From Patescibacteria group bacterium (GTDB lineage Bacteria; Patescibacteriota; UBA1384; DATEAH01): a stretch of DNA of 64,000 nucleotides. Both the position numbers and the translations under genes were made by a program. Positions within the stretch are counted from its first letter, which is position 1. Each line of letters opens with the position of its first letter. Location of the stretch: the NCBI GenBank assembly GCA_035288465.1, contig DATEAH010000005.1, forward strand, positions 131,636 to 195,635. The letters are read 5' to 3'. Below, in pieces: positions 16,246 through 62,781 of the stretch. Under the pieces are notes generated by a model. It did no database searches, had not been told where the DNA came from, and saw only the letters and a list, made by a program, of their open reading frames with translations.

Positions 16246-16992
16246 TTAAGCCTCGGTCTCTTTGATTAAATCATCAGGAATATCAAAATTTGCCGCCACA
16301 GAAACAACTTCATCAATATTATCTAACTCGTCCATTAGTTTTAAAATTTTTTTCGCCGCACTCGCATCTTCTACCTTGACAATATTTTTGGGAATCATGC
16401 TGATTTCTGAATTAATTATTGCGAGATTTTGTTTTTGGAGTTCATTTTTAACTTTTTCTAATTCCTCGGGTTTAGTATAAATTAGGATTTCACTTCCTTC
16501 ATCTGTGACATCATCAGCGCCGGCGTCAATGGCGATCAATTCTATTTCTTCTTTGTCTTCCCGATGGGACCCCTTTGGGACAATCCTTATAATTCCTTTT
16601 TGTTCAAACATCCAACTGACTGAACCTGAACCCGCTAATTTGCCACCGGATTTATCGAGGATGTTTCTAATTTGTGAAGAGGTGCGATTTTTATTATCAG
16701 TGGTAATAGAAATTAAAATTGCCACTTTTTCTGGACCAAAGGCTTCATAAGTGGCATCTTCAAATTTGACATCACCCAGTTCACCGGTGCCGCGTTTAAT
16801 CGCTCGATCAATATTTACTGAGGGCAAATTGGCTTGTTTGGCTTTTTCAATGGCTAAACGGAGCTTGATTTCGGATTTTTCGCGCGCAGCGATAGCAATA
16901 AGATGGGCTAATTTGGTAAAAATTTTACCTTTTTTCTTGTCAGCAATTTCTTTTCTAAATTTTATATTTGACCATTTTGAATGACCCGACAT
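16246..16992 (-). CDS. yebC: YebC/PmpR-family probable transcriptional regulator
   Basis: MSGHSKWSNIKFRK... hallmark N-terminus; start placed at that Met rather than ORF-track 17043. Confidence 0.85.
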   Translation of the reverse strand: MSGHSKWSNIKFRKEIADKKKGKIFTKLAHLIAIAAREKSEIKLRLAIEKAKQANLPSVNIDRAIKRGTGELGDVKFEDATYEAFGPEKVAILISITTDNKNRTSSQIRNILDKSGGKLAGSGSVSWMFEQKGIIRIVPKGSHREDKEEIELIAIDAGADDVTDEGSEILIYTKPEELEKVKNELQKQNLAIINSEISMIPKNIVKVEDASAAKKILKLMDELDNIDEVVSVAANFDIPDDLIKETEA

Positions 16993-17144
16993 CTTCGCTC
17001 CCTTCAGTCGCTCAAAATTAAAGATTAAAAATAAAAGATTCAAGATGAATATAAAAAACGATATGCAATTTTTGAAATTTACTCTTAATTTTTGCCCTTT
17101 GCTCTTTTATTTTACTCTCTTTTGATGAAAAGTCCAGTTTTTAC

Positions 17145-17173
17145 TTGACTTTTTGATTTTGATGTGTTATAAT
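17145..17173 (+). promoter_or_regulatory. perfect sigma70-consensus promoter TTGACT-N17-TATAAT
   Basis: TTGACT 17145-17150, 17-nt spacer, TATAAT 17168-17173; followed by a ~100-nt leader with a UUCG-tetraloop hairpin (AACCC-TTCG-GGGTT, 17226-17239) and a CCGCC...GGCGG hairpin. Confidence 0.55.
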
Positions 17174-17278
17174 ATAGGCATTCGAGGCTAACTTTAGCTT
17201 CGTTCGTGATATTGTTCGTTAACAAAACCCTTCGGGGTTAAACTTTCCGCCTCTGCGGCGGAGAAGGAGGTGTTAACC

Positions 17279-18241
17279 GTGAGGTTGGCACTTGCAATCG
17301 TCGTGTTGCTCGTTGTTGCTGCGTCAGTCACATTGGCGCAGTCGGCCCCAACCTGCGTGGTCGTCGTTGACCCGCAGGCCGAGTACGGCTACGGCGGTTA
17401 TGGGGGGTACGACGGGAGCTACTATTACAGCTCCCAACTCTCCCAGATCGCCAAGCAGGAACTGGAGGCTGCGCTCAGCGAGCGCGGCTGGCTGGTTCTG
17501 CTCAATGCCTCGGACGTCGGTCCGACCCAGGAGGAGTTGCTTCTTGAGAACTCCGAATGGGGCATCAACGGCAGAAATCGCCAACCTATCGGTGATTTCA
17601 CCGGAGCAACAGAGACATTTCTTGTCTCCGCCTTCACATTTGGCGGCCGCGATTTTGAACTCGCGGCTTGGCTGGATGATGCCTATCCTTCGGTCCGACT
17701 CTCGGACCTACGGGTGAAGGCGATTATCCGGCGTTCGTCAACGCGGACCCGGGAGGTTCCCGCGGTCTATGAGGGCTACGGCTCGAAGCGGATTGTCAAA
17801 GACGTCCGCTTGGGTATCCAGTCCTCGCGGAATTTCTGGGGTGGTCTTGTTCAATTGGCAAGCCAGGCTCTCGAAGCTGGTTTAACTGATTGGCAAGACG
17901 CCGGACGAGCCGCCGCACGAGGCGCCATCGAAAATGCCCTTCGGGGTATTGAAGCGCCACGCCAACTGGCTCCCACAACCAGTTCGTCAGCTTTCACAAG
18001 CGCTGACGCGCAAACGTCAACCCCCCGGTACATTTTCCTAATGCTTTATGGTCAGGAAGTTTCCGAGGGCGACCGCTTCGGCATTTGGCGAGACAATCGT
18101 CAGATCGCCGAGGTTGAGGTCGAGTTTGTCCGCTCAGACAACCGAGCATCCTGTCGAGTACTTCGCAGCTCGGTTCCTGATCTTGGCCGCCCCGGCGACT
18201 CCGCCCGCAGTCTCACCCCGACCATCCCCATAGAGCAGTAG
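17279..18241 (+). CDS. secreted protein of unknown function, GC-rich (~60% GC) in an AT-rich backbone
   Basis: GAAGGAGG SD, GTG start at 17279 (ORF-track start 17270 sits directly on the SD); signal peptide RLALAIVVLLVVAASVTLAQS; Gly/Tyr low-complexity YGYGGYGGYDGSYYY; no recognised domain. Confidence 0.55.
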   Translation: MRLALAIVVLLVVAASVTLAQSAPTCVVVVDPQAEYGYGGYGGYDGSYYYSSQLSQIAKQELEAALSERGWLVLLNASDVGPTQEELLLENSEWGINGRNRQPIGDFTGATETFLVSAFTFGGRDFELAAWLDDAYPSVRLSDLRVKAIIRRSSTRTREVPAVYEGYGSKRIVKDVRLGIQSSRNFWGGLVQLASQALEAGLTDWQDAGRAAARGAIENALRGIEAPRQLAPTTSSSAFTSADAQTSTPRYIFLMLYGQEVSEGDRFGIWRDNRQIAEVEVEFVRSDNRASCRVLRSSVPDLGRPGDSARSLTPTIPIEQ

Positions 18242-18274
18242 CTCCACCAATCTCTCCCTAAGGGAGGTGAAACA

Positions 18275-18472
18275 ATGCACTTCGAAACTAGAGTAGTCGT
18301 TGTAGAAACTGAAGGTAGGGGCGTCAGGGCAGCAACCGAACAACTCGCCGTGGATATTGCACTGCTTGGATCCGAAGGCTGGGAGGTCAAAGGACTCAGC
18401 AGCATGCTCCCCGACGAGTACCACGGGTACCATATCTGCGTCCTCCAACGCCCCACCTCTACCAAGTCCTAA
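18275..18472 (+). CDS. small DUF4177-like protein
   Basis: 65 aa; strong SD GGGAGGTG then ATG; pattern ETRVVVVETEG.G...LGSEGWEV...LQRP resembles the DUF4177 family; GC-rich. Confidence 0.45.
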   Translation: MHFETRVVVVETEGRGVRAATEQLAVDIALLGSEGWEVKGLSSMLPDEYHGYHICVLQRPTSTKS

Positions 18473-18568
18473 CGTCTCGTCGCAAGTGAGTACATCGTGT
18501 GCATCCTCGCCCGACCCATCGAGGCCGGCTAACATTAGCGGTCTCGCTACCTGGAGTTGGATCTGATG

Positions 18569-18622
18569 ATCATAACCTCAAGGTTATGATTTAGCGGCAA
18601 ACCGCTATCTGCCTCCCGGCAG
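18569..18622 (+). terminator. cluster of three hairpins downstream of the GC-rich two-gene cassette
   Basis: ATCATAACC-TCAA-GGTTATGAT (9-bp stem), AGCGG-CAAA-CCGCT, CTGCC-TCCC-GGCAG; no strong T-run, so terminator function is inferred. Confidence 0.35.
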
Positions 18623-18836
18623 AAAATCAGACCCAGCTCCTTTTCGTTTTCAAAAAATAAATTGAGAATATAGAGCGAGGCGTCTCCTAAGAAAAGTGTC
18701 TCGAGCCAAACCCGAGGGAATTTTTTAAATAAGTTGAAAGTTTATGGTTTGGCGAAAGTCAAGTGATGATCGAGAAAATTTTATCAAACAAGAAAAAATT
18801 ATCGGAGCGTCTTTTCGTGGAGTATGTTGAGCGAAA

Positions 18837-19715
18837 TTATTTGGCGGTTTTAACTTGATAAGTTTGACCGTTAGTATTTATCTCTATGATTCCGTTTTGA
18901 TCTGTTCTCAATATTTTAATATTTGGAATTTGTTTTAATAAATCTAAAGTTTTTTTGGTGGGATGGCCATATCGATTATTTGCACCCACAGAAATTATTG
19001 CCACTTCAGGATTTACTTGACTTAAAAATTCGGTCATAAGAGCGTTTGACGAACCATGATGCGAGACTTTCAAGACTGTACTTTTAACCATTTGATTATG
19101 ACTTAAAAATTCGGTTTGTGCATCTTGTTCTAAATCGCCCATAAAAATCGCGGAAAATTTTGAATCTTCTAATCTTATCACCACCGAACTATTGTTTGGG
19201 TTATTCATAGTTTTGCCTTGTAAATTTTTAATTGGATATAAAATTTTTAGTTTAATTTGGTTTTGTTGAAAAACTATTTGCCCTATTTGAGCTTTTTTTG
19301 TTTGTATTTGTTTATTTTTTATAAGACTTAAAATTTCAGTGTATTCTGGACTGGAATAGGCGACACCGGTTAACCAGATATTTCCTATTTGATATTTATT
19401 AATAACGTCAATCAAGCCAGCTATATGATCTGCGTGCGGATGAGTAATAATTATTGACTCAATTTTTCGGTCATTAAATGGCATATTCTCGCCCAGACAC
19501 GATAAGACAGAATTATCCGGACCACCATCAATTAAAATTTGTTCATTTAATCCAGGTTCAACAATAATTGCATCCCCTTGTCCAACATCACAAAAAACTA
19601 TTTCTAAATTATTTTCCGATTGTTGGTTTTGAAAAACCGACAACCAAATTAAAATTGCAATTCCCACTAAAAACCCAAAAAATGGCGCCATAATTTTATT
19701 AGATATTTTTGGCAT
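18837..19715 (-). CDS. comEC: ComEC/Rec2 C-terminal metallo-beta-lactamase domain protein
   Basis: ITHPHADHIAGL MBL motif, VFCDVGQGDAIIVE; separate ORF from the membrane part. Confidence 0.75.
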   Translation of the reverse strand: MPKISNKIMAPFFGFLVGIAILIWLSVFQNQQSENNLEIVFCDVGQGDAIIVEPGLNEQILIDGGPDNSVLSCLGENMPFNDRKIESIIITHPHADHIAGLIDVINKYQIGNIWLTGVAYSSPEYTEILSLIKNKQIQTKKAQIGQIVFQQNQIKLKILYPIKNLQGKTMNNPNNSSVVIRLEDSKFSAIFMGDLEQDAQTEFLSHNQMVKSTVLKVSHHGSSNALMTEFLSQVNPEVAIISVGANNRYGHPTKKTLDLLKQIPNIKILRTDQNGIIEINTNGQTYQVKTAK

Positions 19716-21330
19716 TTAATTTCTTTTGTAATTTAATAATTTTTTTATCTTTTTGATAATACCAAATTAGAAAAACAGCCATTAATAAATACCAAGAAAA
19801 TAAAATTGGACTCGAAATTGTAATTTGTTCTAAAGAAGCGAAAGGAATTTTAGCAAAATTTGTGACGACTAAAATTATATATTTCAATACCAGCCAAGAA
19901 AACCAACCGACAACTTGACTAAAACTGATAAAGATAAAAGATGACATAACTGCCAAAAAACCCAAAAGCATCGCTAAGGGAATGATTGGTAAAATCAAAA
20001 CATTCACAATCGGCGCGACCACTGAAATCCTATGAAAATTAAATAAAATCAAAGGGGTAGTTAAAATTTGTGCAGATAATGTGGCTAACAGAGGTTCGGT
20101 AATAATTTTAGGAATTTTAGGATACAAACGCCAACGAGAAAAATAATTTTCTAAGATCGGGACAAACCAAATTAAACCTGCCACGGCCATAAATGAAAGT
20201 TGAAAACCTAAATCTGCCCGAATAATACGCGGATTTATTAAAACCATCAGCAGCGCGGTAATTATTAAGGCTAAACTAATATCAGATTTTCGTCCCAATC
20301 TTTCTGCCCAAATTATAAACATTGCCATCACCGCTGCCCTGACTACAGGTGGCTCAGCGCCAACCATAACCGTGAAAAGAAAAACACCAAGAACCGCGGT
20401 GATAATTGACAATTTTTTCGACCACCTTTTGGTTAAGGACATAAAAACTTTAATAATAATGGTAATATTAAAACCAGAAATTACCACAATATGGGTAGTA
20501 CCGGTTAAATTAAAAGCAGACATTAAATTTTCAGGAATTGAATTTTTCGCGCCGATGAGCAAGCCGGCTAAAAATGAGCTTTCCGGTTCCGGTAAAATTA
20601 AATTAATTTTTTGAGAAAAATTCTGTTTAGCTTTTGACAAAGCACTCAGTAAGGCTTGCCAGCTGGAGGCAACAAAATTTTGCTTAAGATCGACGGGTTT
20701 TTCAATTTCGGTAATCTTAGGATAAGACATTAGTGAATAAATTTCTGACTTGGCTAAGTATTGACCATAATCAAATTCCGAAGATGATTTTGGCTTTAAA
20801 ATTTCCCCGGAAATTTCTAACCACTGGCCCTGTTGATATTCTGGAAATCGCCTGAGCTTGATTAAAATTTTACCTTGAGCATTTTGAAAATCTTTTTGAT
20901 TTTCTGGATGAATTCGATATGTCAAAATAACAAATTGCTGCTGGTCTGATTTTATATCTGGGGTTTTGACAATTTGACCCTGAATCTGAACAGTTTGATT
21001 TTGCCAGCTCGAAAGCTGATCTGGATGGCGCATTTCATAAAAATGTGAATAAAAGATGCCAAACAAGAAAAATAAACCGGCAATGACCATAAGGCGAATT
21101 TGAAGATCTTTCCAAAATGAAATTAGCAAAATCAATAAAAAAATTAGAGCCAAGACCATAATCAAATTATTATAACCCAAAAAAGAGGCCGCAAAGATAC
21201 CAAATAGTAATGCCGCCGAAGAAATTAACAAATATCTTGATTTGCCAATTTTTTTCATTATTATTATCTTAACATATTTGACGAAACTTCGAATATTTAC
21301 TAAAATGAAAGAGAGATTAAAGGAGGGCAA
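19699..21330 (-). CDS. comEC: ComEC/Rec2 N-terminal membrane (DUF4131 + competence) domain protein
   Basis: 543 aa polytopic membrane protein with ComEC competence-domain architecture; overlaps the MBL ORF by 17 nt in a different frame. Confidence 0.7.
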   Translation of the reverse strand: MPSFNLSFILVNIRSFVKYVKIIIMKKIGKSRYLLISSAALLFGIFAASFLGYNNLIMVLALIFLLILLISFWKDLQIRLMVIAGLFFLFGIFYSHFYEMRHPDQLSSWQNQTVQIQGQIVKTPDIKSDQQQFVILTYRIHPENQKDFQNAQGKILIKLRRFPEYQQGQWLEISGEILKPKSSSEFDYGQYLAKSEIYSLMSYPKITEIEKPVDLKQNFVASSWQALLSALSKAKQNFSQKINLILPEPESSFLAGLLIGAKNSIPENLMSAFNLTGTTHIVVISGFNITIIIKVFMSLTKRWSKKLSIITAVLGVFLFTVMVGAEPPVVRAAVMAMFIIWAERLGRKSDISLALIITALLMVLINPRIIRADLGFQLSFMAVAGLIWFVPILENYFSRWRLYPKIPKIITEPLLATLSAQILTTPLILFNFHRISVVAPIVNVLILPIIPLAMLLGFLAVMSSFIFISFSQVVGWFSWLVLKYIILVVTNFAKIPFASLEQITISSPILFSWYLLMAVFLIWYYQKDKKIIKLQKKLNAKNI

Positions 21331-35633: not shown

Positions 35634-35650
35634 AATTGTAAACAAAAAAT

Positions 35651-35721
35651 GGGCCTGGCAGGGATCGAACCTGCGACATGACGCTTATAAGACGTCCGCT
35701 CTGCCACTGAGCTACAGGCCC
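35651..35721 (-). tRNA. tRNA-Ile (anticodon TAT)
   Basis: GGGCCTG/CAGGCCC acceptor, D-arm GCTCAGTGGCAGAGC, anticodon loop CTTATAA (UAU), T-arm GCAGGTTCGATCCCTGC, discriminator A. Confidence 0.7.
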
Positions 35722-46673: not shown

Positions 46674-46701
46674 TTGACTTTTGGAAATATCATTATAAAA
46701 T
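46674..46701 (+). promoter_or_regulatory. sigma70-like promoter TTGACT-N16-TAAAAT
   Basis: points into the GC-rich non-coding region. Confidence 0.4.
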
Positions 46702-46704
46702 TAT

Positions 46705-47527
46705 ATTTAAGGAGAAAATTACCAGCAACACAGTGCTGGTTGATATACGCACAAACAGATGGTCAAGCCTTGTTGTCAAGAAGTGAGAGGGCTTGGCAGT
46801 TCTGTTTGATCCTGTCACAGAAGGAGGTGATAGATAGACCACACCAAGAGGATGCCGTTAGACAGGACTCGGTCAGGGATCTCAGGGAACTCGGATCAAG
46901 AATCGGATGACGGGATCTACTGGGTCAGAAAGTGCTTCGGATCACGTGGACAGGTGGATCGGTCACAGATCGTGGTCGTGTTGTACCCGGGGGAGGATGC
47001 TCTAAGGTCGACAACGCGGTCAATGAGGATGTCGTAGTCCAAGTGGAAATGCCCATGCGGGCTTGTGGTCCAAGTAGTCTCGCATCCTCCCCCAGTCGCT
47101 CTTCCAGCTTCACCCTGATACACCCGACGACCAAACGTCGTTCCTGCCGGCTAAACCCGTAAATTCGTGCGGGTTTATGCCCCGGCCATCCTTCTCCAGT
47201 TGTGGAGAAAAACACCATGAAGAAGCTCGCCCTCTGCTGACGATCTACACCGTGGTCAACCCCAAACCTTCTCACCCCCGCATCGTTGCGGGACGCCGAC
47301 CCTACTAAGGGAAGGATCACCAGTCTAACTGGAATCGTCGCACCTTCCCTTAGGCCCTCATCGCCTACACGTCTTGGCGCCAGCCAAGAGCACGACCAGA
47401 GGTCGGAGAGGTTCGTCCTCACCCCTCGCCCCGGCTATTGGAGTACTACAAAGAGCATCCTTAGCTGGAGCACCCCCGAGAGTACGAGAGCTTAGCGCGC
47501 TTTCATGCCCCCGGGGTTTCTTTTTTA
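46705..47527 (+). ncRNA. candidate large (~820 nt) highly structured GC-rich ncRNA, class unknown
   Basis: no dominant reading frame (short overlapping ORFs on both strands); many nested inverted repeats, e.g. GGGGGAGGATGC...GCATCCTCCCCC, AAGGGAAGG...CCTTCCCTT enclosing CCAGT-CTAA-CTGG, ACCAGCA...TGCTGGT; bounded by a promoter and a T-run. Confidence 0.4.
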
Positions 47528-62398: not shown

Positions 62399-62504
62399 CG
62401 GCTGATTCCTCCCGGGGGGTCTGATAATGAATCAGTTAATTTATTATCTCAAATAAATTTGAAAAAATCAAGATTATATAGTAAAATAATGATATAAAAT
62501 TTGA

Positions 62505-62781
62505 TCCGGTGTAGCTCAGTGGTAGAGCAGCTCGCTGTATATCGTTGCAGCCCCCAAAGGTAACTTTGAGGTGAAAATCGGGTTAATTGTCGGGAAGCCC
62601 CGCTTAAGTGAGGTAATCCGCAGCCAAGCCCGCCGAAGAGGCGTGGAAGGTTCAGAGACTATACGCCCGATTCCGCACCCGTCAATTTGACGGACGGAAA
62701 TGAGATAGTCCACTCCTAAAGGTAACTTTAGGGTAAAGTGTAACGAGAAGGTCGCTGGTTCGAATCCAGCCACCGGAGCCA
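62505..62781 (+). tRNA. tRNA-Asn (anticodon GTT) interrupted by a ~202-nt intron in the anticodon loop; CCA encoded
   Basis: 5' exon TCCGGTGTAGCTCAGTGGTAGAGCAGCTCGCTGT, 3' exon TAACGAGAAGGTCGCTGGTTCGAATCCAGCCACCGGAGCCA; spliced loop CTGTTAA; closely resembles E. coli tRNA-Asn. Confidence 0.7.
62539..62740 (+). ncRNA. group-I-like intron within tRNA-Asn (between anticodon-loop positions 35/36)
   Basis: 5' exon ends in U pairing with G of an intron GCAG guide-like sequence (U.G); intron ends in G; contains AGAGACTATAC P7-like element; no ORF. Confidence 0.55.

Follow-up and report, generated by a model that had tools for sequence, protein, structure and literature searches.

A 64-kb stretch of contig DATEAH010000005.1 from a Patescibacteria group bacterium, here called the window, carries a compositional island at positions 17240-18640, with 55-62% GC in a chromosome of 33-37% GC. 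The island holds a small gene cassette made up of a predicted promoter, a structured 5' leader, an open reading frame (ORF) for a signal-bearing protein of 320 amino acids (aa; ORF A), a short accessory ORF (ORF B) and a compound terminator-like element. All coordinates are window positions unless a locus is named; L-numbers denote related loci and P-numbers related proteins. Per 300 nt, GC rises from 0.31 (16950-17249) to 0.62 (17250-17549), remains at 0.55-0.62 across ~17250-18600 with flanks at 0.27-0.42, and is again 0.33-0.38 by 18600-19050; none of the other 1-kb bins of the window is above 0.457. The shift at the island edge is abrupt at all three codon positions, and the edges coincide with the promoter and the terminator. 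ORF A has 59% GC compared with about 36% in the host. Its GC at third codon positions (GC3) is 0.64 against 0.23-0.39 for window genes, and it is the sole one of 36 window ORFs with GC3 >0.39. A preliminary description of this DNA had reported an abrupt GC-rich island forming a self-contained expression module. The GC and GC3 plots against the rest of the window confirm the island, and the module is complete, since promoter, leader, Shine-Dalgarno (SD) sequences, ORFs and terminator are all present and the unit behaves as a cassette.

The upstream neighbour is yebC. The downstream flank was first given as comEC, which holds with one addition: a separate metallo-beta-lactamase-fold (MBL) ORF precedes ComEC. 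No direct repeats bracket the island in the window sequence, and no mobility genes or tRNA junction lie beside it, the nearest tRNA being 4 kb off. The ComEC function is itself split at 18837-21330 (minus strand) into a 292-aa MBL-fold ORF and a 543-aa DUF4131 + Competence ORF, the former overlapping the end of the latter by 17 nt in the window. The same split arrangement occurs in L001, L094 and L003.

A sigma-70-type promoter is predicted at 17145..17173 (plus strand), with a -35 element TTGACT (17145-17150), a 17-nt spacer and an extended -10 element TGtTATAAT (17165-17173), in which TG stands before the hexamer TATAAT at 17168-17173. The TTGACT-N17-TATAAT arrangement reported earlier is thus present; it scores 11/12 consensus positions plus the TG. 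In a 4-kb scan (16-20 kb) it is the only match better than 9/12, and matches of 9/12 occur there at chance frequency (10 found, 7.7 expected). Transcription is predicted to start near 17180. The motif TTGACw-N17-TGnTATAwT is equally placed in L001, L006, L007/L009, L008, L093, L094 and L097.

Three hairpins are predicted in the 5' leader of ~99 nt (17180..17278, plus strand). The first stands at the 5' terminus (17183-17202). The second, C(UUCG)G at 17226-17239, and the third, CCGCC/GGCGG at 17244-17264, had both been named in the preliminary description and lie together inside a GTTAACA/TGTTAAC stem (17218-17224 paired with 17271-17277). The minimum free energy (MFE) of the leader is -33.7 kcal/mol (z -3.07, or -3.1 when rounded), and 1/200 shuffles fold as well. 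The SD sequence AAGGAGGTG lies at 17264-17272, its GGAGG core 9 nt ahead of the GTG start at 17279. In 7/9 related loci a hairpin stands 0-3 nt from the predicted +1, and the hairpin sequences differ. The L007 and L009 leaders are short (28 nt). In these two loci only, the promoter is preceded by ~100 nt of GC-rich sequence (AGGGGGTGCGATGTGCCCAAGCGAAGAAAACATCCCGCAGGCCGAGCAGGCATGATCCCCGCACC), at L007 840-930 and L009 100-190.

ORF A (17279..18241, plus strand) has a GTG start, and its product shows an N-terminal hydrophobic signal-like segment and a Tyr/Gly-rich stretch, YGYGGYGGYDGSYYY; the SD, the 320-aa length, the signal-like N-terminus and the low-complexity segment were all found as first described. 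The signal peptide has no lipobox, and a nearby Cys is not conserved, being Val in P0007. The extreme C-terminus, ...ARPLTPTIPVE, is conserved, CsgG-type alleles included. GC at the three codon positions is 0.64/0.49/0.64, the dip at the second position recurs in all orthologues, and the remaining frames are broken by 6-12 stops. ORF A has no Pfam or PDB sequence match and stays below the gathering threshold of Pfam CsgG (PF03783). An AlphaFold2 (AF2) model places an alpha/beta domain at the N-terminus, then a helical hairpin, and a small beta-barrel at the C-terminus. On this model the protein would combine a PelC/CsgG/LptE-like alpha/beta domain with a Tyr/Gly-rich loop and a beta-barrel, and we infer a secreted, possibly ring-forming envelope component.

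The accessory ORF B occupies 18262..18472 (plus strand), with an SD, GGGAGGTG, at 18262-18269 and an ATG at 18275; the 65-aa frame at 18275-18472 and its SD agree with the earlier account. The DUF4177-like label given to it does not stand: no Pfam family matches at E<=1, the only database relative is ORF B itself, and just a resemblance to an ...EGWEV... motif is left. ORF B occurs only in the window and L001 and is absent from L006-L009, L093, L094, L096 and L097. The L001 counterpart (L001 8931-9075) has an in-frame TAG beyond which homology to the window ORF B resumes (...SNRV*YTFLLQRKA in L001, ...YHICVLQRPTS in the window), which would mean either that the small ORF is decaying or that its stop codon is read through. 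Where the cassette has no ORF B, the ORF A stop codon is part of a hairpin's 5' arm (GGTCGAGTAGCGC...GCGCTACTCGACC) at L006 1302-1340, L008 1197-1230, L009 1305-1340 and L094 4855-4890. The arms of these hairpins covary between loci, with a conserved CCAAUG in the loop.

The compound terminator-like element (18553..18652, plus strand) consists of a 14-bp outer stem (18553-18567 with 18626-18640), three inner hairpins (18568-18591, 18592-18607 and 18608-18623) and a U-rich tract, CUUUUCGUUUUC, at 18641-18652. The three consecutive hairpins first noted are therefore real and are additionally enclosed in the outer stem with the U-tract after it. The MFE is -50.1 kcal/mol (z -8.8; 0/200 shuffles fold as well). 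With a GC-rich stem running directly into a U-tract, the element qualifies as a predicted intrinsic terminator; a simple terminator scan missed it because its "loop" is a three-hairpin insert. The outer stem recurs in L001, L006, L007, L008, L009 and L094, together with a T-run and between one and three inner hairpins that vary. The 3' arm, ATCAGACCCAGCTC, forms the conserved right-hand border of the cassette, and its sequence is conserved beyond the needs of pairing: each cassette locus of the subclade has a single ATCAGACCCAG, which is missing from all other parts of the 99 fetched loci and of the window. A tRNA-like reading of the three hairpins was rejected, as ARAGORN and Rfam are silent and the inner hairpins vary from 1 to 3. 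About 60 nt past this element, a terminator-like hairpin on the minus strand (CTCGGGTTTGGCTCGAG plus a T-rich tail, 18700-18716) plausibly ends the convergent comEC-MBL operon, so that the two units would terminate back to back.

A conserved slot and its exchangeable coding segments

Relatives of ORF A are few. A word-indexed search of 5.8e9 proteins gave seven clusters, namely ORF A itself and six at 56-60% identity, and an exhaustive profile search of 1.84e9 representatives gave 21 relatives, none of which has a Pfam domain in the part shared with ORF A. No relative was found among 185,579 GTDB species representatives or in IMG/VR, and a phage origin was rejected on the latter result. The closest YebC in the GTDB species representatives is 51% identical (L015) and not syntenic on the island side, and no clean "empty site" was obtained among the representatives examined. 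Relatives of a window ATP-binding cassette (ABC) permease, at 57-64% identity, are labelled Candidatus Berkelbacteria.

Ten cassettes were read at the DNA level: six orthologues (window, L001, L006, L007, L008 and L009) and four further cassettes (L093, L094, L096 and L097; GC 0.46-0.57). All ten have AT-rich flanks, and their neighbours are yebC and/or MBL wherever the flanks are long enough to annotate. In L001 (GCA_004196255.1) the orthologue occupies the equal slot, galT-ruvC-yebC, gene, MBL-comEC; an MBL gene is also found 3' of the homologue in L008. A GC-enriched gene fills the yebC/MBL slot in L001, L008, L094, L096 and L097, and slot and promoter type are also conserved in L003-5. The window's own locus is present on six contigs from three JGI samples, and the related loci come from independent NCBI, ENA, JGI and Logan assemblies.

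The preliminary description had offered recent transfer from a high-GC donor, an assembly chimera or an inserted cassette as explanations, and had proposed that close homologues at the same locus in sister genomes, with uniform read support, would point to a stable native gene. Homologues at 56-60% identity exist at the same locus in sister genomes, which speaks against both transfer and chimera. Transfer is further contradicted by a GC3 that stays high at saturated synonymous sites, and a chimera by the recovery of the AT-rich-flanked architecture in all four sets of assemblies.

The idea of an inserted cassette survives in part. L001 and L094 are drawn from one metagenome. Their identity is 88-89% from galT across ruvC, yebC, the promoter and all of the leader to the start codon (L001:8004), and this level of identity resumes at the 3' arm ...ATCAGACCCAGCTC (L001:9171) and continues through MBL-comEC; between start codon and 3' arm blastn finds nothing alignable. 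Since near-identical flanks enclose an unalignable core, the coding segment is taken either to have been exchanged between close relatives or to be an old polymorphism that has persisted, the expression frame around it being conserved. Insertion of an integron or transposon type does not fit: the border ATCAGACCCAGCTC has no attC-like GTTRRRY core, there are no flanking repeats, no integrase is adjacent (the neighbours are yebC and MBL/comEC, and the integrase result refers to these adjacent genes, the rest of the window being without full annotation for integrases), and the cassette has its own promoter.

The segments found in the slot differ in domain make-up. P0019 (L094, between yebC and MBL-comEC) and P0021 (L097, after yebC) join a Pfam CsgG N-domain to an ORF A-type C-terminal domain. 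P0011 (L096, with MBL next) is a Peptidase_M48 fused to a PelC-like domain, a fusion also seen in seven more relatives, and P0008 (L093, AT-rich flanks) is a distant full-length member. Between the window and L001, the flanking proteins are 53-69% identical and ORF A 62%, so ORF A appears to have diverged roughly in step with its neighbours.

Within the six orthologues, positional differences are 0.30-0.63 at third, 0.13-0.37 at first and 0.10-0.29 at second codon positions. The proportion of synonymous differences (pS) is 0.57-0.76 except in the closest pair, L007/L009 (0.35), and that of nonsynonymous differences (pN) is 0.22-0.33, with 0.12 for L007/L009. Uncorrected pN/pS is ~0.34-0.48 and Jukes-Cantor-corrected dN/dS <0.3; at a pS of 0.57-0.76 the Jukes-Cantor dS is >1 or undefined, which means that synonymous sites are saturated. 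With dN much below dS, the protein is judged to be under clear purifying selection. A large non-coding RNA in place of a gene was ruled out by codon periodicity, dN far below dS and homologues of several architectures. The variety of alleles suggests that phage or a partner cell may impose diversifying pressure.

Base composition and folding of the message

The six orthologues have gene GC of 0.53-0.63 and GC3 of 0.53-0.73, against 0.17-0.39 in host genes, and they hold this GC3 despite saturated synonymous sites, which is not what amelioration would leave. In a two-state model with a host equilibrium GC3 of ~0.27, one synonymous substitution per site removes ~90% of a GC excess. In the L007/L009 pair, polarised with L006, synonymous third-position changes number 18 GC-to-AT and 11 AT-to-GC; a ratio of ~7:1 is expected if host-like mutation acts unopposed on a GC3 of 0.72, and parsimony should, if anything, over-count the GC-to-AT class. 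With GC kept high at saturated sites and near-balanced changes in this pair, the cassette does not have the look of ongoing amelioration. Judged from these substitution patterns, its GC is maintained and not left over from transfer.

The coding region is also more structured than its protein and codon content require. Folding energies were compared with shuffles in which synonymous codons trade places among sites for one and the same residue, so that protein and codon counts are unaltered. The resulting z-scores are -8.3 (window), -5.5 (L001), -8.6 (L006), -13.4 (L007), -10.1 (L008) and -13.2 (L009), and -3.4, -6.8, -7.1 and -13.8 for the four other cassettes, whose neighbours are neither GC-enriched nor over-structured. 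Over all ten cassettes the MFE excess is 9-33% (z -3.4 to -13.8). Flanking host genes (galT, MBL and yebC, in the window and relatives) give z of -1.5 to +1.8, and 35 other window ORFs of >=200 aa give +3.0 to -4.3, with ORF A at -9.9 in the same run. Against dinucleotide shuffles, evaluated with an independent tool, the window coding sequence has z -7.2. In absolute terms, folding energies per nt are -0.40 to -0.58 kcal/mol for the six orthologues, and the run over all window ORFs puts ORF A at -0.48 and the others at -0.16 to -0.30. The excess is not a by-product of GC, because genes of 62-66% GC from GC-rich metagenome-assembled genomes show none (z +1.0 to -1.6).

The predicted fold is a chain of local hairpins, with a median pair span of 25-32 nt and 75-85% of pairs spanning <60 nt, values that rule out rod-like global pairing of the viroid or Obelisk kind. 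Between 68 and 74% of nucleotides are paired in the cassette coding RNAs (~71% in ORF A RNA), and structure is spread evenly across the coding sequence and both untranslated regions (UTRs). A C(UUCG)G hairpin lies within the coding region in 6/10 cassettes, against 0.1 expected from shuffles.

Foldedness is conserved more than the individual hairpins. Orthologues at ~60% identity have 10-35% of predicted pairs in common, and L007/L009 60%; three hairpins (35 pairs) recur in at least five of the six orthologues, and the others are lineage-specific. The RNAalifold consensus has 154 pairs and -105 kcal, compared with -364 to -550 for single sequences, which together with the three common hairpins rules out a single conserved fold of the coding sequence. 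Within that consensus, 35 pairs show compensatory change. From L007 to L009, divergence is 0.14 at paired and 0.29 at unpaired sites, and 14/17 double-changed pairs stay canonical.

The gain in stability over shuffles is bigger on the sense strand in 8/8 cassettes (-24 to -123 kcal, versus -5 to -95 kcal for the reverse complement), with the antisense strand also beating its shuffles (z -0.8 to -11.3), and the helices hold 9-14% G-U pairs. The sense-strand bias and the G-U pairs imply that the transcript, and not the DNA, appears to be selected. On these folding predictions the coding region carries pervasive, selected RNA structure, which is the main anomaly of the locus and was missed by the preliminary description. 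Rfam gives nothing for the island, either at the gathering threshold or at E<=10.

A second GC-rich island lies at 46674-47525 (plus strand), with 0.53-0.59 GC over ~750 nt between flanks of ~0.33. A TTGACT promoter-like site and a 5' hairpin stand ahead of it, an SD-like GAAGGAGGTGAT lies inside, and it ends in CCCCGGGG plus a T-run. It has no plus-strand ORF >86 aa and no codon periodicity, its GC skew changes sign halfway along, and a long-range stem of 12 bp (GGGGGAGGAUGC/GCAUCCUCCCCC) is predicted. The island folds with z -4.4 against dinucleotide shuffles. Rfam yields no match at E<=1, and neither the two relatives examined nor any fetched locus has a counterpart; the ABC permease adjoining the island sits in different neighbourhoods in those two relatives. 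This island is a candidate for a structured non-coding RNA of ~800 nt or a decayed cassette. Elsewhere in the window, a tRNA gene at 62506-62781 (plus strand), not called by ARAGORN, has its tRNA-like halves (TCCGGTGTAGCTCAGTGGTAGAGCA... and ...GGTTCGAATCCAGCCACCGGAGCCA) on either side of a group I intron (62427-62732; RF00028 in Rfam, 82 bits), and a tRNA-Ile with a UAU anticodon lies at 35650-35721 (minus strand). Most bacteria read AUA codons with a lysidine-modified CAU tRNA.

Proposed function and competing explanations

We favour, with moderate confidence, the view that this is a native site, fixed in place, for high-level expression of CsgG/PelC-like envelope proteins that can be swapped for one another, and that selection keeps its mRNA GC-rich and heavily folded. 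The fixed parts would be the near-consensus extended -10 promoter, a leader usually starting with a 5'-terminal hairpin, the strong SD and, in one subclade, the compound terminator with its invariant 3' arm. The variable part would be the coding segment, present as deeply diverged alleles of three types: PelC/LptE-like plus beta-barrel (window), CsgG plus that beta-barrel, and M48 peptidase plus PelC-like. Promoter and SD would drive the envelope protein encoded by the cassette, and synonymous codons would be arranged so that the sense transcript folds into dense local hairpins, which turn over as foldedness stays. The 5' hairpin would guard the 5' end, the compound terminator the 3' end and dense pairing the body of the mRNA, a pairing that would in turn require elevated GC. 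The outcome would be a very long-lived, nuclease-resistant and hence abundant mRNA for a major cell-surface protein. Promoter strength, SD, UTR design and signal peptide would be in keeping with a highly expressed major surface-protein gene, and mRNA stability is probably the purpose of the GC-rich folded message.

Several observations weigh against this reading. The promoter, the start of transcription, the terminator and the abundance and half-life of the mRNA are predicted, and all the structure evidence is thermodynamic (ViennaRNA MFE). L007 and L009 have no 5' hairpin. The ribosome-binding region has a predicted unpaired probability of 0.18-0.54 and is not especially open; such a partly paired site is unlike what a simple maximal-output design predicts. 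Stems of up to 19-20 uninterrupted bp in L007 and L009 could be RNase III substrates, which would run counter to stability. L094 is weak both in structure excess (z -3.4) and in GC excess (GC3 0.37). Changes between the window and L001 number 53 GC-to-AT and 17 AT-to-GC, and there may be some erosion toward host GC in these lineages, a saturated pair for which parsimony is unreliable, and in L094 too. With 7 sequences behind it, the AF2 model is of modest confidence (predicted local distance difference test score 63, with core strands at >=80).

A minor possibility is that the transcript does more than encode a protein, as a dual-function RNA (scaffold, sponge or decoy), as one that must survive outside the cell or inside the host on which this probable episymbiont lives, or as one stored through dormancy. 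Viruses with genome-scale ordered RNA structure (GORS) have an excess folding stability of roughly 8-10%, and the 9-33% found here is at or above that figure. The pervasive, positionally unconserved and sense-biased structure, the 3' arm conserved beyond pairing needs and the second GC-rich, structured and apparently non-coding unit in the window would also fit. However, purifying selection and a sensible envelope-protein fold mean that coding alone justifies the gene, and no known RNA family in Rfam matches.

Structure and GC could instead tune translation or transcription, by slowing elongation for co-translational secretion or folding or by hiding C-rich nascent RNA from Rho whenever translation falls behind transcription. 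The signal peptide, the C-rich four-fold degenerate sites (0.29-0.49) and the partly sequestered ribosome-binding site are in line with such tuning. We consider it unlikely, since structure is even over the coding sequence and UTRs, with no focus at the signal peptide or at domain borders, and the signal is missing from the window's other genes for secreted or membrane proteins.

Repeated import into the slot by homologous recombination, from an unsampled GC-rich reservoir, whether mobile element or other organism, and with no time to ameliorate, would account for the whole-cassette swap between near-identical flanks, the window/L001 excess of GC-to-AT changes and the tiny, patchy family. This is a rather improbable explanation, because the ten cassettes are all AT-rich-flanked with yebC and/or MBL as annotated neighbours, the 185,579 species representatives and IMG/VR hold no relatives, genes of GC-rich genomes lack the structural excess, and cassette divergence tracks that of the flanking genes.

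Selection might also act on hairpins in the DNA: cruciforms or single-stranded hairpins could favour recombination or the exchange of cassettes, or could block replication or transcription next to comEC. The locus does exchange cassettes, and the antisense strand folds better than shuffles, as any Watson-Crick palindromes would. The larger sense gain in 8/8 cassettes, the 9-14% G-U pairs, which are A-C mismatches on the opposite strand, and the short, imperfect hairpins with no long palindromes make this very unlikely.

Recent, unameliorated transfer from a high-GC donor has the abrupt border at three codon positions in its favour and is highly improbable given synteny in sister genomes at 56-62% identity, saturated synonymous sites with GC3 retained, near-balanced L007/L009 changes and the lack of mobility genes, tRNA junctions and flanking repeats. 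An assembly chimera, for which the composition jump alone speaks, can be dismissed on the AT-rich-flanked architecture in independent JGI, ENA, NCBI and Logan assemblies, the identical locus on 6 contigs, and borders that are a promoter and a terminator.

If the favoured reading of a structured, high-output envelope-protein site is true, it would be a natural case of whole-message structural "armouring" of a bacterial mRNA, a principle engineered into therapeutic mRNAs for longer functional half-life. The hosts are uncultivated, ultra-small bacteria of the candidate phyla radiation (CPR), whose gene-expression biology is almost unknown. Composition unlike that of the host is usually read as foreign DNA or mis-assembly; here it would mark a native gene under extra nucleotide-level selection. 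A GC3 outlier combined with a synonymous-shuffle z-score would give a simple, transferable screen for more such genes. The locus also defines a previously unnamed family of CsgG/PelC-like secreted proteins, and as a hypervariable expression site, probably for a major surface component, it would be a candidate for what determines attachment to the host or recognition by phage.

Comparison with known systems

Horizontal-transfer islands share the abrupt GC shift and the sharp borders. This island differs in being conserved in place, without mobility machinery and with a composition that is not decaying to that of the host. The CsgG/PelC/LptE/LpoB envelope-lipoprotein fold offers a structural parallel for the protein, from which ORF A differs in having no Pfam or PDB match and no lipobox, and in its extra beta-barrel ending ...LTPTIPVE. 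Lineages of this host's kind are usually regarded as having no outer membrane.

Persistent positive-strand RNA viruses with GORS and single-stranded RNA phages with their highly folded genomes resemble the cassette in their large folding excess over randomised controls, which is pervasive and poorly conserved in position. The cassette differs in being a chromosomal, DNA-encoded bacterial mRNA without replicase, capsid or virus-like context. Its transcript works like GORS without being a member of the class, as it comes from a chromosomal DNA locus with no viral relatives. A literature search found no GORS outside viruses, the term being used for viruses only, and no prior description of such a cassette was found in literature searches. 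That this is a cellular chromosomal mRNA under genome-scale ordered-structure selection, along nearly all of a 1.4-kb transcript from a dedicated cassette-swapping expression site, is a tentative proposal which we hold to be possible; there is a fair chance of something not yet described for cellular mRNAs. If the GORS-like interpretation is true, the RNA would have a special fate, namely extreme longevity through dormancy, survival outside the cell or in an episymbiont's partner cell, or escape from RNases or RNA-targeting defence. CPR bacteria might then also hold a small class of armoured transcripts, a second GC-rich structured unit being at 46.7-47.5 kb.

Terminal stem-loops are established stabilisers of bacterial mRNAs, as in the Escherichia coli ompA and the Bacillus subtilis aprE and ermC leaders, and intrinsic terminators act as 3' protectors. 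The cassette is similar in its hairpin a few nt from the predicted 5' end (7/9 loci) and its 3' GC-rich stem with a U-tract. It differs from ordinary terminators in the closed multi-branch form (outer stem, 1-3 hairpins) and the sequence-invariant 3' arm.

Further parallels are surface-protein expression sites, such as Lactobacillus slpA, Caulobacter rsaA, Aeromonas vapA and the Clostridioides difficile surface-layer (S-layer) cassette. Sites of this type have a very strong promoter, a long structured leader credited with a long mRNA half-life, a strong SD, an abundant secreted envelope protein, and cassette variation between strains. A strong promoter, structured leader, strong SD, secreted envelope protein and allelic cassettes in conserved flanks are likewise found here. 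In contrast to those sites, the whole coding region is structured and of atypical composition, not the leader alone, and the protein has ~300 aa and a CsgG/PelC-like fold, not a known S-layer fold, with its abundance being inferred. By analogy with these systems, the high-output site proposed here would extend the logic of ompA- and S-layer-type leaders to a whole transcript.

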